A stretch of 64,000 bases of DNA from an uncultured Pseudomonadota bacterium (lineage in GTDB: Bacteria; Pseudomonadota; Gammaproteobacteria; Acidiferrobacterales; UBA6901). The translations under genes and the position numbers were made by a program. The stretch is taken from positions 165,488 to 229,487 of the forward strand of contig CAVOQN010000006.1 of the NCBI GenBank assembly GCA_963698375.1, given 5' to 3'. The number at the start of each line of letters is the position of its first letter. The first letter of the stretch is position 1. Below, in pieces: positions 35,169-58,760 of the stretch. Below the pieces are notes generated by a model that saw only the letters and a program-made list of their open reading frames with translations, was not told the DNA's origin and did no database searches.

Positions 35169-35279
35169 CCTGTCCTCGTGCACGGGTGCTTCGCTTCATT
35201 TGCAGTAGCCCGGGTTTCGGCAGACACTGCAAGGCTTGGTCCGCAACCGCGGAGCAAGCGAGCGAAACGGAGGCCGACC

Positions 35280-36128
35280 ATGAACAAGGTGGAAGCGAAA
35301 GACAAGCAGCACAAGAGCTGGACGCTGGTCGCGCCGGGCTGGGGCAAGTATGACTCGTTGATGCGCGCCTGGAGCGCGCCGGTCACCGAGCGCATGATCG
35401 CGCTGGCCGCCATTCGCGAAGGTTCGCGCGTGCTCGACATCGCCTGCGGCGCCGGCGAGCCGGCGCTGACCGTGGCCGAGAAGGTCGGGCCGACGGGTGC
35501 CGTGCTGGCCACCGACTTCGTCGAGGAAATGGTCGGCTTCGCGCGCTCCAAGGCCCAGGCGCGCGCGCTCACCAACGTCGAGTTCCGCTGTGTCGATGGC
35601 GAAGCGCTCGACGCCACGGGCGGCGCGTTCGACGCCGTGACCATGCGTTGGGGCCTCATGTTTATGCCCGACCCGGTCGCGTGCATGCGCCGCGTGCACG
35701 ACGCGCTCCGGCCCGGCGGCAAGGCGGTGGTGTGCTGCTGGACCGAGGCCGCAGACAACCCGTTCGTCACTGTGCCGCTCGGGGTGCTCAAGCGGCACAT
35801 GGAGGTTCCCCAGCCGCCCGCCGGCGCCCCCGGCATCTTTGCGCTCGCCAGCGCCGACCGGTTACACGAAATCTTTGCCGAAGCCGGGTTTCGCAACGTG
35901 GCCATCGAGCAGGTGACCATCCCGATGGCCGATTTCGCCACCGGTGCCGAGTACGACGAATTCATTCGCGAACTGGCGGGACCGGTGGCCAGCCTGTTTG
36001 TGCAGCTGCCAGCCGAAACACAGGAAGTAGTAAAAAAAGAAATCGCCCGCGATGCCGAGGCCTACAGCGCCACGCCCGGGCGCGTGGTGCTGCATGGCAT
36101 CACCCATGTTGTGGTCGGCACCAAGTAG
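35280..36128 (+). CDS. class I SAM-dependent methyltransferase
   Basis: ORF 35178..36128 trimmed to the ATG after GGAGG. SAM motif VLDIACGAGEP. Confidence 0.85.
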   Translation: MNKVEAKDKQHKSWTLVAPGWGKYDSLMRAWSAPVTERMIALAAIREGSRVLDIACGAGEPALTVAEKVGPTGAVLATDFVEEMVGFARSKAQARALTNVEFRCVDGEALDATGGAFDAVTMRWGLMFMPDPVACMRRVHDALRPGGKAVVCCWTEAADNPFVTVPLGVLKRHMEVPQPPAGAPGIFALASADRLHEIFAEAGFRNVAIEQVTIPMADFATGAEYDEFIRELAGPVASLFVQLPAETQEVVKKEIARDAEAYSATPGRVVLHGITHVVVGTK

Positions 36129-36285: not shown

Positions 36286-37829
36286 TCAGGCCTGGCCCGG
36301 ATCGCCCGGTGATCCCTTGAGCGGTTGGCCGCCCTGCCGGGCACAATCGTCGGCGGGCAGAATCAGGTAGCCCTTGCCCTTGCAGCTGTTCATTCCACCG
36401 CAGGCGTTGCTGGCGGTGGCGCACACGGTCTTGCCCTTGCAGCTGTTGATACCGTAGCAGGCGATCTCGCCGGCCTCGACCTTGGGCGCGTACACATCGA
36501 CGGATTTGTACAGGCCGTAGAAGGCGCCGGCCGCGGCGATGCTCAGGGCGGCGCCGCGGGTGAGTTGCGCCTGGCGCGGGCGCTCGCGCCTGGCCACCGA
36601 GCGGATCATTTCCTCCAGGCACCGGTCCGGTTGCAATGGCAGCCACAGGCAGTACACGCTGGCGGCAAGCAGAACCGCCAGCGGCGCGATGAGTGACCAC
36701 AGCGGCAGGGTCATGGTATTGGTGATCATGAGCCACAGCACGACTGCCGAAATGGCGGCGCTGGCGGTGCCGACCCAGAACGGCGCGAGCCGGTCGCGGC
36801 GGATGCCTTCGCGGTACAAGCCGTAACTCGCAGCCGCGACGGAGGCGACGAATAGCGGGTACATGTAGGCGTGCGTGGCGAAGGCCGCGGCGCCCACCGC
36901 GCCGAACGCGGCGACCAGCAGCGGAATACCCGCGCACACGCCGGCGGCAACCACGGCGCCGGCGAGTGTGAACAGCTGACGCGCCATGACGCTACCACGG
37001 CGACGCCACGAGGATTGTTCATCGATGAACTGCTGCAAGGCGGCGCCGGCCGGCTTGTCCGCTTTCAACACCACGCTGTGGGCGCCGAACAGGCCGGCGA
37101 CCTCGCGTGTCTTGTCGCTGTTGCTGCCGGTAAAGTAATCGAGCTGGTCGACAATTTCGACATTGCCGAAGCCGGCGGCGCGGAACATTTCCAGGTAGCG
37201 GTCTTCGGACACCGCCCGACAACACATTCGGCCCACAGGGCCGGGTCGTTCTGGAACTGCGCGCCAATCGGCTGGCGCAGCGCGATGTCCGCCAGTTGCA
37301 GCCGCCCGCCCGGGCGCAGCACGCGGAAAATTTCCGCCAGCGCGCGCGCCTTGTCGGGCACCAGGTTCAGCACACCGTTGCTGGTGACGACGTCCACCGA
37401 GGCGTCGGGCAGCGGAATGGATTCGGCATTGCCGCCCAGGATCTCGACATTGCGGATGCCGTGTTGATCGAGGATGCCGCGCAGCTTCGTGCGCATCGCC
37501 TCGGTCATGTCGAGCGCATAGACCTTGCCGCGTTCGCCCGCCTGTCGCTGCGCGATCATCACGTCGGTGCCGGAACCCGAGCCGATGTCGAGCACGGTAT
37601 CCCCTTCCCGGATCGCGTCGGCGGCAAAGGGGTAGCCGACACCGGCAAACGATTCCAGCGCCGCCGCCGGCAATCCGGCGAGGACCGTGGCCGGGTAGTG
37701 CACAAACTCGCAGGCCGTGCGGCCGGTGGGGAAATGAAAATCGGACTGTGGCGCGTTCGCGACCTGGGTGTACATCTGCTTCACCGCGCCGAGTATGTGC
37801 TCGCGCTTGTTGCTGGTGATGGCAACCAT
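36286..37829 (-). CDS. ArsM-like SAM methyltransferase fused to a 5-TM domain and a C-terminal 6-Cys (CYGINSCKG...) domain, one frameshift in a G-run
   Basis: ORFs 37065..38030 and 36286..37236 join at ..LWAECVVG/AVSEDRYLEMFRAAGF (C-run fwd 37215-17). Motifs VLDIGSGSG and SNGVLNLVPDK. No stop codon before the TM region. Confidence 0.7.
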
Positions 37830-37903
37830 GCTTTTCTCCCGTGGTGATCGGCGCAGGGCTTTGTTGTGTGGGTCGACGTGATTATCCGAAACCGGACGCC
37901 GGA

Positions 37904-38880: not shown

Positions 38881-38909
38881 AAGACGCAAACCCCCGGCAA
38901 ATGGTTCCC
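38881..38909 (-). promoter_or_regulatory. candidate ECF promoter GGGAAC-N17-CGTCTT (sigma operon)
   Basis: The motif recurs at 38955, 58192 and 58732. Confidence 0.55.
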
Positions 38910-38954
38910 GCCAGTTTCGATGTTCCGGAAAAAGTTTTGCCCCTGCCCGGGGAC

Positions 38955-38984
38955 GGGAACTCTTTCGCGGGCGTGTTGCGTCAT
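38955..38984 (+). promoter_or_regulatory. candidate ECF promoter GGGAAC-N18-CGTCAT (divergent methyltransferase)
   Basis: Lies 67 nt upstream of ATG 39051. Confidence 0.5.
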
Positions 38985-41811: not shown

Positions 41812-42002
41812 GACAACAAGGTTTTCGTCTAGATGTCGGATTTCGGCGCGAATGCCATGCTGCGCTTCGACCCGAAGACCGAAAAGTTCACCGTGATCCC
41901 GAGCAAGAGCGGTAACGCGCGCGCGCCAGATTCTCGGCCGGCCCGGCGAGGTGTGGTTACCGGAGTCGGGGGGCGAATAGGTTGGTGGTGGTGAGGGAGT
42001 GA
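41812..42002 (+). repeat. degenerate duplicate of the Vgb-like gene 3' end
   Basis: Aligns base for base with 40839..41030 apart from a few substitutions, a 2-nt deletion and a premature TAG. Confidence 0.8.
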
Positions 42003-42138
42003 CTGATAGTTTTGAATCTATTATTTCGAATGGCGTAACAAAGTATTACAGAGCTTTCGGGCCACTTGACTGCCTCACCGTACTTTACCATTATGAACCG
42101 AAGTATCCCAAAGGACTAAAGATCTTCCATGTACGTCT

Positions 42139-42585
42139 ATGACAATGAAACAGGCTGAAGGCAACACGGCGATGAAGTGTCTCGCACCCCTTGTCGGGAT
42201 ATTTTCCGGATCGATGCTTGGCTGGGCACTGTTTTTTCTATCGCCGGATTTCGCATCGGAAAAAATCACTGTGGGCGATATTTGCGCGCGACTATATGGC
42301 TTGGCATTCGGATTTTATGGTTGGGGTATTGCCATTGTTATCGGCCAAAACAAGAGTCTTTTTTGCGGTGGCTTCAATGAGTTTATGAGTGAAGATCGTT
42401 TAAGGATAAGCGGGCTTGCAGTGGTTTCTGTCGTGCTTCTCATAGTAGATGCGGGTTTGTTAGTGAAAGGCCACTACGAGATTTATTCAGTAATCTGGGT
42501 TATTTTGATGTTTGGATTTCTCGGCGAGGTTGGCTGGGCAAATCCGTTATATATACCTAAAAAGTTTATCGACTTTTTTATTTGA
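42139..42585 (+). CDS. hypothetical membrane protein (AT-rich)
   Basis: 148-aa ORF with about 4 hydrophobic segments. I recognise no family. Confidence 0.55.
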   Translation: MTMKQAEGNTAMKCLAPLVGIFSGSMLGWALFFLSPDFASEKITVGDICARLYGLAFGFYGWGIAIVIGQNKSLFCGGFNEFMSEDRLRISGLAVVSVVLLIVDAGLLVKGHYEIYSVIWVILMFGFLGEVGWANPLYIPKKFIDFFI

Positions 42586-42624
42586 GTGAATGACTGTGTT
42601 TGTCTGGAAAACGGATACTGTCTT

Positions 42625-43077
42625 ATGAAAAAGATGATTATTGCCAAACGCAACGCACGTGTACTCGGTCTGGTTGTCGGTATCATGTGGCTGACCACGT
42701 GCCTAACCTCAATGCTTTTGGTTCTAGATTTAATTCTAAGCCGAAGTGTGACCATTTATGGTTTGGTTTACCCATTGGTCTTGGCCTCGTGCGTGATAGC
42801 AGGTTTTGTCGGCGCTACCGTATTGTCGAAGCTGCTTGCGTCGTTATTTACGGTTCCCAGCGCACCAAGTGTCCGGACTATTTCTTCACCGAATAAGTAC
42901 ACTCTCGCCGGAAGTCCGGCAGCCTTTTGTTCGATAGTAGCTATTGCAGTGATTGCACCGGTTCATTTCGTTGGCGGTGTGGCGTTATCTTCCGATACGA
43001 CATCCGCCCCTATTTACCTCAGTGATGACACACAGGCAACTCCTAGCCCATCGGAAGTAAAAAATTTCGGTAATTAA
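42625..43077 (+). CDS. hypothetical membrane protein (AT-rich)
   Basis: ORF 42586..43077 trimmed to MKKMIIAKRN. Hydrophobic segments are present. Confidence 0.55.
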   Translation: MKKMIIAKRNARVLGLVVGIMWLTTCLTSMLLVLDLILSRSVTIYGLVYPLVLASCVIAGFVGATVLSKLLASLFTVPSAPSVRTISSPNKYTLAGSPAAFCSIVAIAVIAPVHFVGGVALSSDTTSAPIYLSDDTQATPSPSEVKNFGN

Positions 43078-43096
43078 TCTGAGCGCTACTTAAAAC

Positions 43097-43513
43097 ATGT
43101 CAAACGATAAAAAATATCCATCGGTTATTTGGTCCATCCTTGCGGATGACGTCAGACAGGAAACGGGCTCCAAGATATCCATCATTGGCGCTTATACTGG
43201 CAACGATATAACAGTTACGCCAACACAGCAGTTGCCGACAGGTCAATCGATTGGATTTCCGTTGACAGTATTGTATGTATTCGAAGGTGTCGAAGGTGAG
43301 CACGAAGCGCGGCTAAACATCTTCGATCCATTAGGTAAAGCAGTTGGGAATGGAGTTCTGAAGTTTAATCCGGGCAAGGTGAGTACTGTTAACGCGATAT
43401 TTAAGTTACCAAATTTTGTTGTATCTGAGTCTGGTCAATATACCGCCAAACTTTCATTTGGTGATCAAAAACCATACGAATTCAAGTTCAAGGTTAAAAT
43501 CGCACAAGCGTAA
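43097..43513 (+). CDS. hypothetical soluble protein (AT-rich)
   Basis: 138-aa ORF with beta-rich composition. I recognise no family. Confidence 0.6.
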   Translation: MSNDKKYPSVIWSILADDVRQETGSKISIIGAYTGNDITVTPTQQLPTGQSIGFPLTVLYVFEGVEGEHEARLNIFDPLGKAVGNGVLKFNPGKVSTVNAIFKLPNFVVSESGQYTAKLSFGDQKPYEFKFKVKIAQA

Positions 43514-43516
43514 GAA

Positions 43517-43661
43517 TTAAAGGGGTCAGTACCCTTTTAGCCTCGCAGTACCGCAGAATCCAGTCAGATTGAACGGCCACGCCATTTCATTGCACGTGCT
43601 GTAACAACGCCTGTTCGACCTCGTCCAGCGAAAACTTGCCCACCTCGACAACCGTGGCCCG
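43517..43661. repeat. 145-nt direct repeat, copy 1 (contains the 3' end of a lost minus-strand gene)
   Basis: About 90% identical to 44794..44939. The minus strand reads ..ATVVEVGKFSLDEVEQALLQHVQ*. Confidence 0.8.
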
Positions 43662-43668
43662 CAACTAT

Positions 43669-43742
43669 GGGGTCAGGTCTTGCAAGTTAACTTCCACTAA
43701 AATCAAATCATGGCGCAAATTGATTGCTCAAGACCTGACCCC
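43669..43742. repeat. palindromic repeat, GGGGTCAGGTCTTG family
   Basis: GGGGTCAGGTCTTG-N46-CAAGACCTGACCCC. Confidence 0.75.
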
Positions 43743-43816
43743 GTTTCACAGCGGAGTTGGTTTCTCGGACAATGTGAACGATTGCGGATCAAAGCTGCCT
43801 GCGAAGGAGATAACGC

Positions 43817-44797
43817 ATGAAAGCAGTTGTGTATGAGAAATACGGGCCGCCCGAGGTTCTTCAAATTCGGGAGGTTGAAAAGCCCGTACCCAAGGACAAT
43901 GAAGTCCTGATAAAAACACATGCGACAACGGTTACATCCGGGGACTGGAGGGTGCGGAGTCTCAATGTGCCTGTCGGCTTCGGGCTCATCACGCGTTTGG
44001 TATTTGGAATTACAAGACCAAGGCAACCCATACTCGGGACAGAGCTGGCGGGTGTCGTTGAATCGGTCGGCAACCATGTAAGCAAATTCAAGGTCGGTGA
44101 CCAGGTTTTTGCGTTCAGCGATGCCGCCATGGGTTGTTATGCGGAGTACAAATGCATGCCACAAGACGGGGCGATGGCATTAAAACCGGCCAACCTGACC
44201 TTTGACGAAGCCGCCGCCATCTCGTTTGGCGGCACAACGGCATTGAATTTCCTCAGGAGAGGAAAACTTCAGCGCGGAGAAAGCGTACTCGTCATTGGGG
44301 CGTCCGGCGGGGTAGGCACCGCAGTGGTGCAGCTTGCCAGGCACTTCGGCGCCGACGTGACCGGGGTGTGCAGTAGCGCGAACGTGGAATTGGTGAGGTC
44401 ACTGGGCGCCCGTCATGTTATCGACTACACCAAAGAAGACTTCACGCAGAATGGCAAAACCTATGACATCATTGTCGATACCGCCGGCACGGCGCCGTTC
44501 TCCCGCAGCAAGGCTTCATTAAAGGCAGGCGGCCGCCTGCTACTGGTTCTGGCTGGGCTGCCAGACATGCTTCTGATTCCATGGGGGGCAATGACAAGCA
44601 ACAAGAAGATCATCGCCGGGCCAGCGTCCGGACGCGCGGAAGATCTGCGTTTTCTCGCGAGTCTGGCTGAGACCGGTGAATTCAAACCTGTCATTGATCG
44701 GCGCTATCCGTTTGAGCAGATCGCCGAGGCACACCGCTACGTCGATTCCGGACGCAAGAGGGGAAACGTCGTCATCACGCTGAAACATGACAATTAA
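43817..44797 (+). CDS. NADPH:quinone oxidoreductase / zinc-type alcohol dehydrogenase (MDR) family protein
   Basis: MKAVVYEKYGPPEVL..., GASGGVGTAVVQLA Rossmann motif, AAGGAGA RBS. Confidence 0.9.
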   Translation: MKAVVYEKYGPPEVLQIREVEKPVPKDNEVLIKTHATTVTSGDWRVRSLNVPVGFGLITRLVFGITRPRQPILGTELAGVVESVGNHVSKFKVGDQVFAFSDAAMGCYAEYKCMPQDGAMALKPANLTFDEAAAISFGGTTALNFLRRGKLQRGESVLVIGASGGVGTAVVQLARHFGADVTGVCSSANVELVRSLGARHVIDYTKEDFTQNGKTYDIIVDTAGTAPFSRSKASLKAGGRLLLVLAGLPDMLLIPWGAMTSNKKIIAGPASGRAEDLRFLASLAETGEFKPVIDRRYPFEQIAEAHRYVDSGRKRGNVVITLKHDN

Positions 44798-45987: not shown

Positions 45988-46023
45988 GGGGTCGGAGTGA
46001 TTTAACTTTAATCACTCCGACCC
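45988..46023. repeat. hairpin repeat, GGGGnCGGAG family (possible bidirectional terminator)
   Basis: GGGGTCGGAGTGATT-TAACTTT-AATCACTCCGACCC flanked by A-rich and T-rich runs. Lies between convergent genes. Confidence 0.75.
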
Positions 46024-46053
46024 TTATTAACTTTTTAAACTTGCGTTCGATCC

Positions 46054-46491
46054 TTACGGCTTCAGGTAGGCGTACTTTTCCTTGACCTGGAGTCGCGTGA
46101 CCTCACGGACGCCGGAGGGCACGAGCTTGATGACCGACAGAAACTTCTTCGGGTCGAGGTTTCTGCGTTTCAGGGTGATTTCGCAGACGCGGAATTCCAC
46201 ACCCTTGGACGCCAGCTTTTCCACGGGAATGCTGTAGGGATTACCTTTCTTGTCTTCCGTGCCTTCCATCAGGAAATCGACCCCGCTGGAGTGAGTGACC
46301 ACGACGATCTTTGCATTCGGTTCGACTTCCAGATGGTTGCTGATGTTGCGCAACGCGTCCGAAGCCTGCTCATTGCCGAGGTTCACGTGATAAAGCACCT
46401 TCTCCACGTCGCTGTCGGCAGCCATCGCCATGCCCGAAATTGCAATAGCACCGATCGCACCGGCGATCAGAAATACTTTACGAATACCCAT
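46054..46491 (-). CDS. periplasmic DsrE/DsrF-like (COG1416-type) protein
   Basis: Signal peptide. Motifs KVLYHVN...IVVVTHSSGV...GVEFRVCEITL...VPSGVREVTRLQ..YAYLKP. Confidence 0.75.
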   Translation of the reverse strand: MGIRKVFLIAGAIGAIAISGMAMAADSDVEKVLYHVNLGNEQASDALRNISNHLEVEPNAKIVVVTHSSGVDFLMEGTEDKKGNPYSIPVEKLASKGVEFRVCEITLKRRNLDPKKFLSVIKLVPSGVREVTRLQVKEKYAYLKP

Positions 46492-46837
46492 AGTCCAGCT
46501 CCTCGTTGGTGGTTGTTGGGAATCAAATCCCGTTGTTCCGAAGGGAACATGAGGGAGACGGGCGCGAAGGGGCTAATATTTCAGAAGAATTATTACTTAT
46601 AACGATTAATACCATTGATGGTATCGGGATGCGAGGCAAGCCAAACCGTGCCGCTATCCGGATGCTCCGAAAGGAGGGGAAAGATTGATTTTCTGCACCA
46701 AACGATGAAAGTGGACGCTAATTCAAGGTGTCAGGAGTTAGAATTATAAAGAGTCGTAGTGATGTATCGTTAATCACTCCGACCCTTTTAATTCGACGCT
46801 TTAATCGTTTGCTATTAACGTTTTTCCACTTTTCCTT

Positions 46838-47749
46838 ATGACTAAAATAAACGCGATGCGGGTTTTGTTTTCAGTTGTTTGTTTGAGCATGGTGGCTTTA
46901 AGCGCGCAGGCGGCGGAACCCATTCGCCACTACGCTGGCCCATTGTTTGATGCCCATTTGCATTACAACGCCGAGGCGGGTGATGGCCAGACTGACCCGT
47001 TTCCGCTCCCGGATGTGTTGGCGCGCATGCAGCGCAATGGCGTGCGCGGCATCCTTGCCAACTCGCGCCCGAATGATGGCACGCTGGCGCTCGCCGCAAC
47101 GCCGCTCGCGCGAAAAGCAAATGTGCAGGTGGTTCCTTTTGTGCGCCTCTATCGTAACCAGGCGGATTACGACAGCTGGTTCGGCGATGAGTCTATTTAC
47201 CAGATGGTGCAAACTGAATTGGCACGTGGCACGGGAGCCGGGCCATTCAGGGGTTTGGGCGAATTTCATCTTTACGACAGCGCCAACGCCAATGGCGTGG
47301 TGGTGAAAAAAATAATGGCGTTGGCGGAGGAAAAGAATCTGGTGCTGCTCGCACATGTGGACGATGTGGCGATTGACCTATTAATGGCCAGCACCGTGTC
47401 GCGCGGCCAGAAAGTCCGCCTGATCTGGGCGCACACCGGTATTGACGGCGCACCTGTAGCACGAGTGGAGGAGTTGCTGGTCAAGTACCCGTTGCTCATG
47501 GGGGAGTTGTCCTACCGGCCGGGGCTGGCTTGCGGCGATTTCAATTTTTGCCCCGAGTGGCGCGCCTTGTTCATCAAATACCCCGGCCGCTTCCTGATCG
47601 GTTCGGACACCTGGAACAATCAACGTTGGCTGAGTTATGACGACCTTATCAAGCGTTACCGCATCCTGCTGGCGGATTTACCTGCCGATGTGGCGCGACG
47701 CATCGGATGGTTGAATGGCAAGGAGTTGTTTGGGCTGTCGGAGCCTTGA
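46838..47749 (+). CDS. secreted metal-dependent amidohydrolase (TIM-barrel) family protein
   Basis: Signal peptide. FDAHLHYN metal-binding motif. HVDD and IWAHTG segments. Confidence 0.7.
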
Positions 47750-47897
47750 TTTTTTAAATGCGAGCTAAAACCACGAAAATCGGGTCAGACCACAGTTTCT
47801 TAAGGTATCTGTAATATAAGGGGACGGCGGGATTGCTGTTCGTGGTTAAGCTGATCAACACCAGACCTTATGTGCTTATAGATTTATAGGAGTAAAA

Positions 47898-48242
47898 ATG
47901 AGATTTTCAATTATTATTTTACTAATAATGTTTTTAGGCGGCTGCGCATCAGGATTAGAAAAGTTGCGTAATGTAAATTCTGGTATGACGCCGAATGAAG
48001 TAGATCAAATTATGGGAAACAGGGATGATTTCAGTACTATAGAAAAAAATGGTGATACATTCACCCTCTATAAATACACAAATCGATTTTGCAATTCTCA
48101 CGTCGACATAAAAGATAAATGTGATTACTTTGTCGTATTTAAAAACGATAAGGTAACTGAAACGGGTATAAAAAATATAGGCGCCAACAAACCGAGTCTG
48201 GAATATACGAATATGAAATATATTAATCTTTTTCAGAAATAA
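47898..48242 (+). CDS. small lipoprotein (AT-rich), BamE/SmpA-like motif
   Basis: Lipobox FLGGC. GMTPNEVDQIMG. Confidence 0.65.
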   Translation: MRFSIIILLIMFLGGCASGLEKLRNVNSGMTPNEVDQIMGNRDDFSTIEKNGDTFTLYKYTNRFCNSHVDIKDKCDYFVVFKNDKVTETGIKNIGANKPSLEYTNMKYINLFQK

Positions 48243-48298
48243 ACTATTGCGTAACAAGTCGCCCGTTGGGACGCTTTGCCGCGATGCGGCTAATAAAA

Positions 48299-48331
48299 GG
48301 GGACGGAGGGATTAAAGTTTAATTCCTCCGT
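48299..48331. repeat. hairpin repeat, GGGGnCGGAG family
   Basis: GGGGACGGAGGGATTAAAGTTTAATTCCTCCGT. Confidence 0.7.
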
Positions 48332-48387
48332 TTTGTGAATTCATTAAGTTTCTCCGGCCTTTTTGTTACCCCGTGCTTGTGCTGTTC

Positions 48388-49242
48388 TCAGCTGCGGGGG
48401 ACGGTTTGTTTACGTGCGTGCTGCAACTCCAGTTCAAGCAACATGTCTTTTTCCAGATTCTTTAAATAACCCGGGTTCGTATTGTGGTAGCCGTTAAGAA
48501 AGGCGATGCGGACTTTATTGTCCGGTAGCGACAGGATTTCGACACGGTACTCGATTTCCTTGCGTGTGTAGCTTCCAGTGCTCCGACCTGGTTCGCTTTT
48601 CAATACGGTCCAACCACGCTTTAACAGGGCAATATTCGCCACTTGTTGCAGGGTGGCGGGTGTGGCATTGAACTTCTCCACATTGAGCGTAACGTATTCA
48701 ACAAACAGGGCCGGTTCATCCACCGCCTTTTTGGCCACAGGCTTTACTGCACCGGGCGTACCCGTGTTTGATTGGGGCGTTGGCAGTGTCGGAATTGTTT
48801 TGGCCAGGTAGTCGGCCATGGCTATCATGTCGGGATCGCTACGGGGGCTTATGGTAAATCTTTCGACGGCTTCCTGCGCTGTGAGTTTAGCGTTATTCCG
48901 AATTCGGAAATCAGCGCCGTTCCTGAGTAAAATTGCCGCCACCGGCCGGTGCATGTAGACGCCCGCCAGATGCAGGGCGGTATCCCCATTGTTGTCCTGA
49001 AGATTGAGGTCGGCCCCGGCCTGGACCAATTCCTCGACGGCGTTCTGTTTTCCATAGCGTGCCGCAATCATCAAGGCACTGCGGCCGATATCGTAGCGCT
49101 TGTTGATGTCCGCGCCGGTGCTGAGTTGCGCACGCAGCGCTCCCACATTGCCTTTTTTGGCAGCCTCATCCAGGGTCGGCGCGGCGTGTACTACCGGTAC
49201 CAGCAGTGAGATATTCAAAAAAAATATGATATAGCGAAACAT
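48388..49242 (-). CDS. secreted ankyrin-repeat protein with unknown C-terminal domain
   Basis: Signal peptide. Three to four ANK repeats (GRSALMIAARYGKQNAVEELVQAGADLN, NGDTALHLA). Confidence 0.8.
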   Translation of the reverse strand: MFRYIIFFLNISLLVPVVHAAPTLDEAAKKGNVGALRAQLSTGADINKRYDIGRSALMIAARYGKQNAVEELVQAGADLNLQDNNGDTALHLAGVYMHRPVAAILLRNGADFRIRNNAKLTAQEAVERFTISPRSDPDMIAMADYLAKTIPTLPTPQSNTGTPGAVKPVAKKAVDEPALFVEYVTLNVEKFNATPATLQQVANIALLKRGWTVLKSEPGRSTGSYTRKEIEYRVEILSLPDNKVRIAFLNGYHNTNPGYLKNLEKDMLLELELQHARKQTVPRS

Positions 49243-49479
49243 GGATTCTCCAGATGTAACAGACCGGTGAGTATGCAGAAATAGTAAGCGTTCCTTTCAG
49301 GAAAAACCACGCGTGCTCAATCGACGTCGTTTCTTGCTCACAACTATGCAAGAATCTGTGTCAAATATTCAGGGTCAGAGTCAAAACTGCGCACTTCTGT
49401 ACAATTAGTTAAAGGGAACGCAGTGATTTAGGTTTGATCCCCCTATCTCCGTACCACCACCGACACACGAGGACCACCC

Positions 49480-49944
49480 ATGGATATCCAACGACTTGCC
49501 GTTCTCCTTTCCATTTGTTTTGCCGTAACCGCTTCTGTTGTCGTGGCCGACGATGTCCCGGGCATCAAGGACGGCGACCGGTTGACACAGGACGTTGCCG
49601 GCAAAGTCGCTGACATCTCCACCCCGGACTTGCAGCGCGCGATCGAGAAGATTCCGGACCTGGTGCTGATCGACATCCGCATGCCGAGCGAAATCGAGTC
49701 CATGGGCGGCGCCATCAAGGCGCCGCAGAACGTCAACATCCCGCGCGGCTGGCTTGAATTCCGCGTTACCAACACTGCCCGGAGCAAGGACACGCCCATC
49801 GTCGTGTACTGCGGCGGCAACATTCGCAGCGTTCTGGCCGCCCACACGCTACAGCAGATGGGCTACACCAACGTGAAGAACTACGCCGACGGTTTCTTCG
49901 GCTGGAAGCAGAAGGGGTTGCCGGTCAAACAGCAAGACAAATAG
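49480..49944 (+). CDS. secreted rhodanese-domain sulfurtransferase
   Basis: Signal peptide. Active-site loop VVYCGGNIRS. Confidence 0.85.
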   Translation: MDIQRLAVLLSICFAVTASVVVADDVPGIKDGDRLTQDVAGKVADISTPDLQRAIEKIPDLVLIDIRMPSEIESMGGAIKAPQNVNIPRGWLEFRVTNTARSKDTPIVVYCGGNIRSVLAAHTLQQMGYTNVKNYADGFFGWKQKGLPVKQQDK

Positions 49945-50030
49945 GGTCAGTGAGCATTTGTTGCTTGTAAGAGGGAAATTGGTGTCGGAAGGATCAGTAC
50001 CCAATTATTCGTTGCGAGTTGGACTGTAAA

Positions 50031-53267: not shown

Positions 53268-54230
53268 ATGCCAACGGCACGCTTTCGAAATGCAGCACTG
53301 GTGATAGTGGGCGCAGTGGTTGTCGGGCTGGGCGTAGTGACGGCTTCGTATCAACGCGACATTCAACAGGCCCGCGAGCGGGTGGCGACTGGCAGCCGCA
53401 TTGCCCAGACGCCCTGCGGTCCGATTGAATACGCCGTGGTGGGTGACGGTCCGCCAGTGCTGGTGGTGCATGGCGCCGGCGGTGGATTCGACCAGGGACT
53501 GGATTTCGCGACGCCACTGGCTGGACGCGGCTTTCGCCTTATCGCCATGTCACGCTTCGGTTATTTGCGCACGCCGCTGCCGACGGATGCCTCGCCGCCG
53601 GCGCAGGCCGATGCGCATGCCTGCCTGCTGGACGCACTCGGCATCAAGCGCGTCGGCGTTTTCGGCGCTTCGGCCGGTGCCCCGTCTTCCCTGCAGTTTG
53701 CCTTGCGGCACCCGCAACGAATCAGCGCACTTGTGTTGCTCGTTCCGGCCACTTATGTACCGCGACCCGGCGACGCACCGTCGGTGACCAAGCCCAGTGG
53801 CCTGGAATTCGTGATTGATATGGGCCTGCGGTCGGATTTTCTGTTTTGGGCAGCTGCGCGGCTCGCGCCTCAAACCTTGACCCGCGCAATACTCGCGACA
53901 CCGCCGGCCGTGGTGGCGGGCGCCAGCCCTGAGGAGCAGGCACGCGTGCAGATGATGCTGGACCACATCCTGCCGATTTCGCAGCGCCGGTTCGGCCTGC
54001 TGAACGAGGCCGCCGTTATCCCTTCCATCCAGCGCTATGCGCTCGAACGCATCCGCACCCCGACCTTGACGATGAGTTTTGCTGACGACCTGTTTGGTAC
54101 CTATGAAGCTGCCCGCTACACGGCCGAGCAGATACGCGGCGCTCACTTTGTCGGCTACCCGAGTGGTGGACACCTGGCAGTTGGACGCCAGCAAGAAGTA
54201 TGGAACGAGATTGCGCGTTTTCTGAAATAG
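53268..54230 (+). CDS. alpha/beta hydrolase
   Basis: ORF 53235..54230. Motifs VVHGAGGG and GASAGA nucleophile elbow. N-terminal TM segment. Confidence 0.8.
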   Translation: MPTARFRNAALVIVGAVVVGLGVVTASYQRDIQQARERVATGSRIAQTPCGPIEYAVVGDGPPVLVVHGAGGGFDQGLDFATPLAGRGFRLIAMSRFGYLRTPLPTDASPPAQADAHACLLDALGIKRVGVFGASAGAPSSLQFALRHPQRISALVLLVPATYVPRPGDAPSVTKPSGLEFVIDMGLRSDFLFWAAARLAPQTLTRAILATPPAVVAGASPEEQARVQMMLDHILPISQRRFGLLNEAAVIPSIQRYALERIRTPTLTMSFADDLFGTYEAARYTAEQIRGAHFVGYPSGGHLAVGRQQEVWNEIARFLK

Positions 54231-54470
54231 CAGCTAACAACGTGGACCAGGTAATCGTGTCAGCGATAAGAGTGGTCAGAACACATCCAGGAGATACGAA
54301 TAGTAAGGGCCAACGTATAAACAGCTCACTTCTGCACCATTGCATGTTTTCCGGTTGATTCGACCCCATGCCCCATATGACTATTCCATCCAGGCTGGTT
54401 ATACCAATAGCCCGGGCCTTCGCACGTGGATTAGATTGGGATACCTTCCCTGGAACGAGATAAAGGTGAA

Positions 54471-55079
54471 ATGAAGATGAAAAACAAAATACTGATCGGA
54501 ATTGGAATTCTGGTTGTCATTCTGGCTGTTGCATGGGTCTTTGCCGAGCCAGTGGAAAAGTATAAGGCTGGCGACGCGTTCCCGCCGACGAAACTCGTGA
54601 ACATACACGGTGTTGAGGTCACCATCCCGAACTCAAAATCAAAATGGATTCACCTTCAATTCCGCAGATTTGCCGGCTGCCCAATCTGCAACTTGCATCT
54701 TCAGTCATTCTTAAAAAGAAACTCAGAGATTGAAGCAGCGGGTATTCGTGAGGTTGTCGTATTCCACTCGCCCAGAGAGTCGCTGCTGCCGTATCAGGGT
54801 AAATTCCCGTTTGATGTCATCGGCGATCCCGACAAGAAGTTGTACGCACAATTCGGCGTCGGGACGTCAATATTTTCCTTGCTGGATGTACGCGCCTGGC
54901 CGGCTATCGTGCGAGGCAATTCTGCAAAAGACAAACCGACAGTGGATCCGGAGGGCAGCGTTTTGGGTTTACCGGCAGACTTCCTCGTCAATTCAGAGGG
55001 CACAATTGTCGCCAGTCATTATGGCAGACATTCCTACGATCAGTGGTCGGTAGATGAACTTCTGGCGCTTGCGAAATAG
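54471..55079 (+). CDS. peroxiredoxin-like (AhpC/TSA, redoxin) family protein
   Basis: N-terminal TM or signal segment. FRRFAGCPICNLHL motif. Confidence 0.8.
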   Translation: MKMKNKILIGIGILVVILAVAWVFAEPVEKYKAGDAFPPTKLVNIHGVEVTIPNSKSKWIHLQFRRFAGCPICNLHLQSFLKRNSEIEAAGIREVVVFHSPRESLLPYQGKFPFDVIGDPDKKLYAQFGVGTSIFSLLDVRAWPAIVRGNSAKDKPTVDPEGSVLGLPADFLVNSEGTIVASHYGRHSYDQWSVDELLALAK

Positions 55080-55192
55080 AAATTCGAATCCGGGGGCAGA
55101 TTTATTTACAGCGCGCGTATCTGCAGGGACAGTGGAAAGTGCTTGCGTTGATAAGCAATATTCCCTCTGCCCCCTTTCCCGTCCTCGTCAGA

Positions 55193-55498
55193 TTAGAAAC
55201 TGGAGCAGGCTGGCCCATCCTTGCCCGCAAGGACGCCTTTGATATCCGGATGATTTTTTAGCTCGCCCAGTATTTTGCTGTAGAGCGCGTCAGGCGTATT
55301 TCTGGCGAAGACAACATCAAGATAGCCGTCCTCTCCAATGACATAACTTGTGAATTCGTCCGCATCGTACTTAAAAAGTATATTGGTAACGGCAGTACTG
55401 GTTTTTGCCTGAGCATCCTCTGCAAGAACTGTTTCAGTACCAGCGATTCCGCAGAACATCATGAACGTAAATAAAAAAGGCGTTATTTTCCGACGCAT
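55193..55498 (-). CDS. small secreted hypothetical protein
   Basis: 101-aa ORF with a signal peptide. I recognise no family. Confidence 0.55.
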   Translation of the reverse strand: MRRKITPFLFTFMMFCGIAGTETVLAEDAQAKTSTAVTNILFKYDADEFTSYVIGEDGYLDVVFARNTPDALYSKILGELKNHPDIKGVLAGKDGPACSSF

Positions 55499-55915
55499 TG
55501 TAATTCCTCGCTTGTAGATCAGGGCAACACCCTGACGATCCTAATCACCAGCAGTTGATATATTAGGTGTGGCAAAGGCGTATCGTTTTTTTGTCGTCCG
55601 TGTTTTGAGTGTAGTTCGACTGAGTGCAGAGTACAGGCGCATCTCATTGCCTGTCAGGCCCTCGTTTGGGATGGGCGTCAACTGATCGCCGGCTATCCGA
55701 TCGAAGAAACCAGCCCCATCGACTGCTCCAGTGAGAAGAGACGAGTGATGTCTATCCGGAAACCCAAGGCAAAAAGTAGACGCCTTGTTGCGGCGTATTT
55801 TCTTTCAGGACCTGACGGTTTGCATGCTCATGGTAGTGTCCTTTTTGGTAGTTAGGGACACCAAGCCTAGCCGGGGCCTGCTGACAGCCTTATGTCAGTA
55901 GGCTTTGAAAAATAA

Positions 55916-55940
55916 TGCCTGTCGAAGCGGGGATCGAACT
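55916..55940 (-). other. tRNA 3'-end-like fragment (T-loop plus acceptor 3' strand), not a complete tRNA
   Basis: The minus strand reads GTTCGATCCCCGCTTCGACAGGCA. No matching 5' half or anticodon arm. Confidence 0.3.
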
Positions 55941-56073
55941 ATGGGGGCAGACCACGGATCCTTCTGTATTGATGAATGGGCCTGGTGCAAGACGCAGCCT
56001 TTGTCCCAACTTCTCAACTGAGAATCTTTTGTCCTTGACCTGAACTAATACCGGAAGATTGGTCATTCCCGAC

Positions 56074-56526
56074 TCAGTGTAAATAGGCGTAACCGTCGTG
56101 TTGCAAGCGGACGATCTCCGCATCCGCCATGGGCACGAGCTTGATGAAGTCCTCAAAATCGTTCCGGCCGAAGCCTTGCATTTTTGCCGAAGCCTGACAA
56201 AGCCGGAATTGGATCACGTCGCCGATAGCGAGATCCCGTGCGCGCCTGGCATGGTCCTGGTGATGTTTGCGCGTGCCTTTCGCGAACGGTTGAATCGCAC
56301 CGTCGTGGATTACGACGACGATTGAGGCGGCGAAGGGATCGCTGCCATAAATAGTCTGCAGCAGACTAACCCGATCGAGAATCTGCATTAATTTGGAAGG
56401 ATCGGCGCTGGAGACGTCGTACACCACCTTTGCCGGTGCATACCGACCTGAATCGGTCGCCCTGACGGGCGCGGCAACCAATACCAGCATCAATGCGGCG
56501 ATGACGTAACGGATTGGCATGTTCAT
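56074..56526 (-). CDS. periplasmic DsrE/DsrF-like (COG1416-type) protein
   Basis: Signal peptide. Motifs KVVYDVS...IVVVIHDGAI...FRLCQASA...VRLQHDGYAYLH. Lies 8 nt after the anti-sigma stop. Confidence 0.7.
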   Translation of the reverse strand: MNMPIRYVIAALMLVLVAAPVRATDSGRYAPAKVVYDVSSADPSKLMQILDRVSLLQTIYGSDPFAASIVVVIHDGAIQPFAKGTRKHHQDHARRARDLAIGDVIQFRLCQASAKMQGFGRNDFEDFIKLVPMADAEIVRLQHDGYAYLH

Positions 56527-57413: not shown

Positions 57414-58145
57414 TTATCCCGCGGCCATTCCCGATTGATAAACCCGTATACCACCCGGAGACAGCAGGCGCCAGTTCTCGTTCGTCAATGGCGCGGTTGC
57501 CAGCAGCACCTGCGAGTTCCGGCTGATCGATGTATAGAAGGTCTGTTCCAGCACATGCAGCTGTGTGTGGGCATGAACAAAGAGGTATTCGCCGTTGCTG
57601 AGAATGAAATTGAATTCCCCGAGTGCAGACAGCTCGTTGACGACCGGCTCTATCGCGGCCGTCACGTCGCCCGGAAAAATTGCGCTGCCGTGTTTAACAT
57701 TGGTTGCGATGGCATCCAGCAGCATGCAAAAAGCCCGCTCGGAATCGGTATTCCCCAGCGGCTGAAACCGGCCGGGGGTGCATTGACTCACATCGGCCAA
57801 CCCCGGCAGTTTGCCGTTGTGCGCGAAAATCCAGGAGTGGCCATTCCATTCCCTCTCGAAGGGGTGGGTGTTGGCGGCCGTCCGGCCAGCGCTGGCGGGA
57901 TTGGCCCTGCGAATATGGGCAACCACGGTTGTGCTTTTCAGACGCGATTTCGCCAGCAAGGAGAGATAGCGACTCTCTGACGCGGGGACCGCGTCCTTGA
58001 AGACGCGCGAAGCACGGCCCTCGAAATAGGCTACCCCCCAACCGTCGGCGTGCGGTCCACTCTTCCCACCGCGGGGGATCAGGCGCGTCAAATAATGGCC
58101 AACATCCGTTGGCTGGTTCGCGCTCATTGCAAAAAGTTCGCACAT
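57414..58145 (-). CDS. class II glutamine amidotransferase (YafJ-like)
   Basis: N-terminal MCELFAMSAN... with nucleophile Cys2. DGWGVAYFEG. Confidence 0.85.
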   Translation of the reverse strand: MCELFAMSANQPTDVGHYLTRLIPRGGKSGPHADGWGVAYFEGRASRVFKDAVPASESRYLSLLAKSRLKSTTVVAHIRRANPASAGRTAANTHPFEREWNGHSWIFAHNGKLPGLADVSQCTPGRFQPLGNTDSERAFCMLLDAIATNVKHGSAIFPGDVTAAIEPVVNELSALGEFNFILSNGEYLFVHAHTQLHVLEQTFYTSISRNSQVLLATAPLTNENWRLLSPGGIRVYQSGMAAG

Positions 58146-58191: not shown

Positions 58192-58220
58192 TAGACGCAG
58201 TGCGTGGCACGTCAGGTCCC
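58192..58220 (-). promoter_or_regulatory. candidate ECF promoter GGGACC-N17-CGTCTA (amidotransferase-sigma operon)
   Basis: Same architecture as 38881..38909. The -35 lies within hairpin 58211..58249. Confidence 0.5.
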
Positions 58221-58249
58221 GAAAAGAAGAATAAATTTCGGGACCTGAC
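58211..58249. repeat. hairpin GTCAGGTCCCGAAA-N11-TTTCGGGACCTGAC
   Basis: 14-bp perfect stem, downstream of gene 58261..58629. Related to the GTCAGGTC repeats. Confidence 0.75.
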
Positions 58250-58260
58250 GCCAGGGCCGG

Positions 58261-58731: not shown

Positions 58732-58760
58732 AAGACGCATTGCCATGTCATCCAGGTCCC
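58732..58760 (-). promoter_or_regulatory. candidate ECF promoter GGGACC-N17-CGTCTT (DsrE-family gene)
   Basis: Same architecture as the other three sites. Confidence 0.5.

Follow-up and report, generated by a model that had tools for sequence, protein, structure and literature searches.

Two loci of an uncultured Pseudomonadota bacterium (Gammaproteobacteria; Acidiferrobacterales; UBA6901), each coding for a sigma factor of the extracytoplasmic function (ECF) type followed by its putative anti-sigma factor, lie on the same 64,000-nucleotide stretch of contig CAVOQN010000006.1 (assembly GCA_963698375.1, positions 165,488 to 229,487; hereafter, the window), and both are accompanied by two copies of a promoter-like element composed of the blocks GGGA(A/C)C and CGTC(T/A)(T/A). 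The question raised by this arrangement is whether the four copies represent a single motif that joins the two sigma loci in one regulon, as proposed in a preliminary description made from the sequence alone, or the signatures of two separate systems. The comparison with related loci indicates that the four sites are very probably genuine, evolutionarily conserved ECF sigma promoters; moreover, it makes it likely, in our judgement, that they belong to two paralogous ECF sigma/anti-sigma modules, each with two cognate promoters, and that these promoters fall into two classes.

All four elements are found at the coordinates and on the strands given in the preliminary description, with exact matches to both blocks (Table 1). 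The pattern used there matches the window four times where 0.13 matches would be expected by chance, and at least four matches occur in none of 100 shuffles; as the pattern had been fitted to these very sites, the count is circular, and evidence was therefore sought outside the window. Specifically, two position weight matrices (PWMs) were built solely from promoters at orthologous loci of other organisms, one from 42 sites at loci of the sigma 1 type (class 1) and one from 66 sites at loci of the sigma 2 type (class 2). What the analysis shows are the four sites with their conservation and class specificity, together with gene families and synteny.

In the window, the class-1 PWM assigns 31.3 bits to site 1 and 30.0 bits to site 2, and the class-2 PWM assigns 32.1 bits to site 4 and 30.8 bits to site 3; the next-best site after these four reaches 10.4 bits (class 1) or 13.0 bits (class 2), and the top score in 200 simulated windows generated by an order-1 Markov model is 22.1 or 20.6 bits, respectively. 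With the PWM of the 42 foreign class-1 sites all four elements rank at the top of the window, but only sites 1 and 2 score high, with 31.2 and 29.8 bits in this run, sites 4 and 3 obtaining 15.7 and 11.1 bits, little over the background maximum of 10.2. Each element is intergenic and oriented toward the adjacent gene, with a start codon preceded by a Shine-Dalgarno sequence 40-95 nt downstream. The conserved blocks extend beyond those originally delimited, to C-GGGA(A/C)C and TGCGTC(T/A)T; in addition, GGGAAC-Y-nTTT is common to sites 1 and 2 and GGGACCTG to sites 3 and 4. The preliminary description had reported no further copies in the window, and this is borne out by the PWM and relaxed-pattern scans, which return only chance matches within coding regions (31529, 50683, 27025, 63645, 25596 and 23961, all at 13 bits or less). 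A scan for sigma-70-like promoters finds none in either intergenic region, and Rfam and tRNA scans of the whole window give no match, so that the leaders are not known riboswitches.

Loci of the sigma 1 type were collected by a scan with one genome per species, which returned 80 loci (L001-L080) from at least six phyla. The nearest one belongs to a Sulfuricaulis metagenome-assembled genome (MAG), at 77% identity, so that the DNA of the window is probably that of a member of the Acidiferrobacteraceae. Cultured carriers include Marinobacter azerbaijanicus (L059) and Pelomicrobium (L050), and L003 is from a complete genome (CP070641.1). The other hosts are Gamma- and Alphaproteobacteria, Burkholderiales, Nitrospirota, Gemmatimonadota, Latescibacterota, one Akkermansiaceae and one Actinomycetes MAG. 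The order of a sigma gene, a gene for an RsrA-like zinc-associated anti-sigma factor (ZAS) and a gene for an ArsM-like methyltransferase (MT1) is kept in 80 of 80 loci, many of which also carry homologs of a second methyltransferase (MT2) and of DsrE in divergent or upstream positions. The sequence GGAAC-N16/17-CGTC is located about 70-200 nt upstream of the sigma gene in 42 of these 80 loci, as exemplified by CGGGAACCATTTTGGGCCCTTTTGCGTCATG, the equivalent of site 1 in L001. The 42 collected sites yield the consensus C-GGGAAC-Y-TTT...N16/17...(T)GCGTC, with a T-rich stretch after the -35 element and with conservation of bases that were outside the search pattern, namely the G before GGAAC (36/42) and the G before CGTC (38/42). 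Where the near site is missing, a strong site is found farther upstream, before a DsrE-MT2-sigma array or before the gene of a secreted ChrR-like cupin; strong class-1 sites also precede MT2, DsrE and MT1 homologs, and divergent MT2 orthologs with the site 2 motif are present in L001, L002, L004, L009, L023, L042, L043 and others.

As regards the cupin, nine loci, mostly from Gemmatimonadota, have a class-1 promoter before a gene for a secreted ChrR-like cupin of 161 amino acids (PF12973) that precedes the sigma gene. They include L013, L019, L025, L026, L037, L041, L057 and L063 (about 550-700 nt upstream of sigma), and in L019 the cupin gene is on the opposite strand, divergent from sigma.

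Loci of the sigma 2 type were obtained from a metagenome scan that returned 80 contigs. In most of them a gene for a DsrE-family protein with a CPPC motif lies directly upstream of sigma 2, which is followed by the ZAS anti-sigma 2 gene and sometimes by a periplasmic DsrE-like gene, kept at this place in several contigs. The element C-GGGACC-T-(G/A)-A...N17...TGCGTC-(A/T)-T is found upstream of DsrE in nearly every contig that reaches far enough, and contigs with a long spacer between DsrE and sigma 2 contain a second copy inside the spacer, matching the layout of sites 4 and 3 in the window. All 66 non-identical class-2 sites, 47 of them preceding DsrE by 70-150 nt and 19 in internal positions (from DsrE to sigma 2 or to the amidotransferase gene), have GGGACC, even though the search pattern was GGNANC; their spacers are mostly of 17 nt and unrelated in sequence. 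In one sigma-2-type contig, an MT2 homolog with 55% identity is located about 5 kb downstream (L095, 9778-10561, minus strand), which hints at a neighbouring position of sigma 1 and sigma 2 modules elsewhere as well.

Taken at these loci, the elements have the features by which ECF promoters are recognised: a bipartite -35/-10 structure with a 16-18 nt spacer of free sequence, a position upstream of their own sigma operon, which recurs in about 60 of the 80 sigma-2-type loci as it does in the 42 sigma-1-type loci mentioned above, and retention of the motif at the equivalent place in orthologous loci with rarity elsewhere. The recurrence in 80 plus 80 related loci thus strengthens the original view of ECF-type promoters with conserved blocks, fixed spacing and unrelated spacers.

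Conversely, the proposal of one motif and one regulon is not supported in the form in which it was made. The fifth base of the -35 block is a mark of class, being A in 42/42 sigma-1-type sites and C in 66/66 sigma-2-type sites, and the search patterns permitted other bases at this position. The two classes share the -10 element TGCGTC(T/A)T and differ in this single core base of the -35 element (position -32 in the numbering of Escherichia coli sigmaE), as well as in the flanks, which are Y-TTT in class 1 and T-G/A-A in class 2. At the four sites of the window, the -35 sub-score falls from about 17-18 bits with the PWM of the own class to between -0.2 and 3.8 bits with that of the wrong class, which also speaks against one regulon linking both sigma loci; the cross-class scores of the whole sites are 11-17 bits. 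Over the fetched loci, at a threshold of 18 bits, sigma-1-type DNA has 103 class-1 and 3 class-2 hits and sigma-2-type DNA has 85 class-2 and 17 class-1 hits, and nearly all the cross-class hits are cognate sites lifted over the threshold by the common -10 element. The attribution of an AAC core to the -35 element is correct for sites 1 and 2 and wrong for sites 3 and 4, whose ACC breaks with an AAC core described by Lane and Darst as nearly universal among ECF promoters (PMC1540707). Motif class follows the sigma factor and not the target gene, because DsrE homologs bear the class of the neighbouring sigma, with GGGAAC beside a sigma-1-type gene and GGGACC beside a sigma-2-type gene.

The protein side of this split was examined in an alignment with about 120 members per sigma family. 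In E. coli sigmaE, R176, S172 and R171 read G-35, G-34 and C-31 (PMC1540707), and neither family varies at the equivalents of these residues, in keeping with the GG..C common to both classes. At the position corresponding to F175, a residue that touches the -33 base pair, adjacent to the class-distinguishing base, 87% of the sigma-1-type proteins have Ala (A188 in sigma 1 itself) and 89% of the sigma-2-type proteins have Asn (N175 in sigma 2 itself), and the residues beside it also switch by family (L/M, A/G). As a correlation, the Ala/Asn switch is compatible with recognition of a separate -35 element by each sigma factor.

That either sigma factor, or both interchangeably, would read all four sites, so that the loci form one co-regulated regulon, is unlikely. 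Such an arrangement could draw on the identical -10 elements and the single differing core base of the -35 elements, on cross-class scores that are still among the best of the window, on the distance of only 19 kb between the sigma loci, and on the crosstalk shown by paralogous ECF26 sigma factors with similar promoters in Sinorhizobium meliloti (PMC3511301). It is opposed by the absolute split of A and C by locus type, by the different flanks and the loss of the -35 sub-score in the wrong class, and by residues of the -35 recognition helix that differ between the two classes; furthermore, conservation of the -35 element of sigmaE is described as highest at A-33 and A-32 (PMC1540707). The simplest reading of the sequences is that each sigma would drive two promoters at its own locus, with the common -10 element leaving some crosstalk possible.

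Some considerations weigh against this reading of two modules. The spacer of site 2 is of 18 nt, 1 nt over the 16 or 17 nt of the 42 collected sigma-upstream sites, and 11 of 11 sites before MT2 orthologs have a spacer of 16 or 17 nt as well. The pairing of each sigma with a promoter class is based on their shared location and on the self-regulation that ECF sigma factors usually show, which leaves a low probability to a reciprocal or shared arrangement, and the transcription starts, the dependence on sigma, the inducing signals and a role in thiol or sulfur stress are all deduced from sequence. The contigs are fragmentary, and the number of modules per genome is not readable from them; the orthologous loci share phylogeny, so that the counts given above refer to non-independent events. 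The helix residues are numbered after the sequence of E. coli sigmaE, and this numbering agrees with the residues named in the published work.

Site 3 deserves separate consideration, as its -35 element is part of a hairpin. The 90-nt segment with the hairpin has a minimum free energy of -37.5 kcal/mol (z = -5.75). The arrangement is conserved, as GGGACC is paired as the 3' arm in 14 of 18 internal promoters versus 10 of 46 promoters upstream of DsrE and, on the sigma 1 side, 12 of 42 promoters; a consensus fold over 16 loci comprises 14 pairs, 6 of which show compensatory changes, outside the invariant core. The element has the G+C-rich stem-loop of an intrinsic terminator (58209-58251), but no U tract is present 3' of the stem, which is followed by GCCACGCAC, and a terminator scan does not report it; the hairpin thus falls short of a canonical intrinsic terminator. 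The 5' arm was also considered as a source of an antisense promoter on the plus strand, and this was discarded, as no CGTC is found at the correct spacing.

On account of the hairpin, GGGACC at site 3 might be merely the 3' arm of a terminator or stabiliser, with no promoter at this place and with the amidotransferase-sigma 2 operon read through from site 4. The -35 element is indeed entirely within the 16-bp stem, and in most sigma-2-type contigs DsrE abuts sigma 2 without an internal promoter, yet this explanation is quite improbable: the -10 element TGCGTCT is clear of the stem and correctly spaced at 17 nt, 19 non-identical loci conserve the two elements together (18/19 with G before CGTC, 17/19 with the preceding T), and every contig with a long DsrE-sigma 2 spacer has both blocks. 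The conserved -10 element outside the stem argues for a promoter and not just half a hairpin. With site 3 as a promoter, the hairpin would end or stabilise the DsrE message that starts from site 4, and the internal promoter would restart transcription for the sigma 2 operon, possibly uncoupling the effector output from the self-amplification of sigma. Finally, that the blocks serve as operators for some conventional DNA-binding regulator, or match by chance, can be given very little credence, since the back-to-back placement of sites 1 and 2 and the palindrome at site 3, which could bind a dimer, are outweighed by an asymmetric, bipartite motif of fixed spacing and free spacer sequence, always aimed at the downstream gene and always beside an ECF sigma gene across phyla, by simulations that exclude chance, and by the non-palindromic nature of sites 1, 2 and 4.

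Table 1. Predicted promoters, genes and hairpin of the two sigma loci (window coordinates).
Feature	Coordinates	Strand	Description
Site 1	38881..38909	-	GGGAAC-N17-CGTCTT, exact; putative class-1 promoter of the sigma 1/anti-sigma 1/MT1 operon
Site 2	38955..38984	+	GGGAAC-N18-CGTCAT, exact; putative class-1 promoter of the divergent ArsM-like methyltransferase MT2
Site 3	58192..58220	-	GGGACC-N17-CGTCTA, exact; putative class-2 internal promoter of the amidotransferase/sigma 2/anti-sigma 2/periplasmic DsrE-like operon
Site 4	58732..58760	-	GGGACC-N17-CGTCTT, exact; putative class-2 promoter of DsrE (CPPC), first gene of the conserved DsrE-sigma 2 cluster
Sigma 1, ECF sigma factor, 216 amino acids	38143..38793	-	Pfam Sigma70_r2 + Sigma70_r4_2; TIGR02947 SigH_actino, 125.1 bits
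Anti-sigma 1, RsrA-like ZAS, 80 amino acids	37904..38146	-	zf-HC2 (PF13490); TIGR03988 antisig_RsrA, 51.7 bits; sole PDB match RsrA
MT1, ArsM-like methyltransferase with membrane segment and BufA2-like Cys-rich tail	36286..37829	-	Methyltransf_31/11/25; NF050166
MT2, ArsM-like S-adenosylmethionine (SAM) methyltransferase, 267 amino acids	39051..39854	+	Methyltransf_31; PRK11873, 196 bits (cut-off 263)
DsrE-family protein with CPPC, 122 amino acids	58261..58629	-	Pfam DsrE, E = 9.7e-16
Class II glutamine amidotransferase, GATase_4, distant EgtC-like	57414..58145	-	PF13230, E = 2.7e-68
Sigma 2, ECF sigma factor, 205 amino acids	56792..57409	-	TIGR02947, 128.5 bits; 41% identical to sigma 1
Anti-sigma 2, RsrA-like ZAS, 86 amino acids	56535..56795	-	zf-HC2 (PF13490); TIGR03988, 53.3 bits
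DsrE-like protein with signal-peptide-like N-terminus, last gene of the sigma 2 operon	56074..56526	-	Pfam DsrE, E = 3.3e-05
16-bp hairpin	58209..58251	-	directly after the DsrE stop codon; 3' arm holds the site 3 -35 element

The gene boundaries of the two loci equal the public protein calls, and sigma 1 and sigma 2 match public proteins exactly. The genes are packed as in operons, with sigma/anti-sigma overlaps of 4 nt at both loci. The best solved relative of sigma 1 is SigH of Mycobacterium tuberculosis (E = 2.4e-28). TIGR02947 is the best specific model for both sigma factors, which do not reach its cut-off of 251.55 bits, and both anti-sigma factors stay below the cut-off of TIGR03988 (62.5 bits); the proteins are thus SigH-like and RsrA-like, and not equivalog members. 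The anti-sigma factors have the traits of RsrA-type ZAS proteins, being small and soluble, with a zf-HC2 domain and C...H-x3-C-x2-C ligands, and encoded directly after sigma; members of the anti-sigma 2 cluster carry the JGI label 'anti-sigma factor (TIGR02949 family)'. The amidotransferase, which scores 53 bits with TIGR03442 (EgtC), far under the cut-off, is an optional insert between DsrE and sigma 2, present in 6 of the 80 sigma-2-type contigs.

The N-terminal part of MT1 matches Methyltransf_31/11/25, and its tail matches the BufA2 model NF050166 at 70 bits (cut-off 60). In the window, MT1 is frameshifted at about 37215 (37205-37225), where one G is gone from a G run (GTCGGG-CGGTG) and the two pieces abut in different frames; the ortholog in L001 (6944-8523) is a single gene of 514 amino acids within a 526-codon stop-to-stop open reading frame (ORF). 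Either an error of assembly or a true pseudogene could account for the frameshift. The L001 protein is an unusual fusion, in which an ArsM-like methyltransferase is joined to about four predicted membrane helices and, at the C-terminus, to a Cys-rich BufA2 domain (a bufferin-type metallophore), and the long form is also found in L003, L033, L049, L067 and L068; none of the usual bufferin maturation genes is seen beside MT1 in L001. The nearest relatives, L001 (6887) and L002 (2617, 886 nt past the start of the sigma match), have an additional class-1 promoter between anti-sigma and MT1, CGGGAACCTTTTTACA..AACGTCGTT. A corresponding internal promoter was sought in the window (37830-37903) and rejected, as the sequence is degenerate there, unlike in L001 and L002.

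The best PDB matches of MT2 are arsenite methyltransferases. ArsM enzymes have three As(III)-binding cysteines, in GCGNP, SNCV and ECL; MT2 has GVGNP and SNGV at the first two and keeps the third Cys alone, and MT1 (37216-37829) likewise is without two of the three. Given these replacements, arsenite is not an obvious substrate of either enzyme, and from their sequences the substrate of MT1 and MT2 is probably not arsenite. A third ORF resembling class I SAM methyltransferases (35178-36128, plus strand) is convergent with the sigma 1 operon and has weak tblastn similarity to MT1 of L001; no copy of the motif was found before it. Between the sigma loci, the G+C content drops to 0.46-0.51, compared with about 0.60, at 42001-44000, 46001-50000 and 54001-56000, and these stretches may be acquired DNA.

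Among known systems, the closest solved proteins are SigH for the sigma factors and RsrA for the anti-sigma factors, that is, the ECF12 pairs SigR-RsrA of Streptomyces coelicolor and SigH-RshA of Mycobacterium and Corynebacterium, which respond to thiol-oxidative stress. The window modules share with them the small soluble anti-sigma factors with C...HxxxCxxC, their translational coupling to sigma, and a promoter ahead of the operon that predicts self-regulation. Unlike SigR and SigH, the sigma and anti-sigma factors of the window remain under the curated cut-offs (125 vs 251 bits and 52-53 vs 62.5 bits), and they are carried by Proteobacteria, Nitrospirota, Gemmatimonadota and others, but only rarely by Actinobacteria. 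The promoters differ as well, since ECF12 SigR/SigH targets carry GGAAT-N18-20-GTT (PMC11588781) and the sites described here GGGA(A/C)C-N16-18-CGTC, and the neighbouring genes code for methyltransferases, DsrE and an amidotransferase; no thioredoxin or mycothiol genes are found among the genes annotated around the sigma loci, to which the annotation was confined.

The class-1 elements resemble those of E. coli sigmaE (RpoE) in the -35 sequence GGAAC-T-T and in the GTC core of the -10 element (PMC1540707; GTC in 4LUP according to PMC11588781), but the equivalent of F175 is Ala or Asn and the anti-sigma factor is a cytoplasmic ZAS instead of the membrane RseA of sigmaE. A further parallel is offered by RpoE1 and RpoE4 of S. 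meliloti, ECF26 sigma factors that are paralogous, self-regulated and sulfite-responsive, with small sulfur-related regulons and crosstalk demonstrated by experiment (PMC3511301). As in the window, two paralogous ECF sigma factors with similar promoters coexist in one genome; unlike the window modules, RpoE1 and RpoE4 belong to another ECF group, have membrane anti-sigma factors of the COG5662 type and control sulfite-oxidase targets, whereas the motifs of the window are cleanly separated. Literature searches found no experimental study of either sigma family, and these gene contexts are unmentioned in the main text of the ECF re-classification paper.

On these grounds, the mechanism is most likely ordinary ECF self-regulation with a ZAS anti-sigma factor. 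The most likely target of sigma 1 is GGGAAC-Y-TTT...N16-18...TGCGTC (sites 1 and 2), through which it would drive its own operon (sigma 1, anti-sigma 1, MT1) and the divergent MT2; that of sigma 2 is GGGACC-TG...N17...TGCGTC (sites 4 and 3), through which it would drive DsrE(CPPC) and the operon of the amidotransferase, sigma 2, anti-sigma 2 and the DsrE-like protein. Each cytoplasmic anti-sigma factor of the RsrA type would hold its sigma; once the cysteines of the anti-sigma factor are oxidised or modified, the freed sigma would transcribe its own operon, with self-amplification, and a few effectors. Candidate effectors are DsrE in both classes, a rhodanese in some class-2 loci, the EgtC-like amidotransferase and the ArsM-like methyltransferases, and some class-1 loci have OsmC, DUF1858 and the ChrR-like cupin; judging by their families, this suggests a response to thiol, reactive-sulfur or metalloid stress. 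A more detailed scheme is advanced only tentatively, in which the two widespread modules, found mostly outside the Actinobacteria, are kept apart by the one-base -35 switch (A or C at -32), read through the Ala/Asn switch, the hairpin and site 3 form a compact terminator-promoter junction, and a conserved response to thiol or reactive-sulfur (or metalloid) stress has as its core effector an ArsM-like enzyme without the arsenic-binding cysteines.

A self-regulated ECF sigma factor with a ZAS anti-sigma factor is a textbook mechanism and already known; the splitting of specificity between the two paralogs is a clean natural example. For two large ECF families, which span sulfur-oxidising Gammaproteobacteria, Nitrospirota, Gemmatimonadota and others, and whose core regulons are readable from synteny, the analysis provides two testable promoter models in the form of the PWMs from 42 and 66 sites. 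The combination of sigma, RsrA-like anti-sigma and ArsM-like methyltransferase emerges as a widespread module. Moreover, the two systems constitute a natural pair of near sigma/promoter sets, with a common -10 element and with one -35 base and a few recognition-helix residues that differ, of use for understanding and engineering the promoter specificity of ECF sigma factors.

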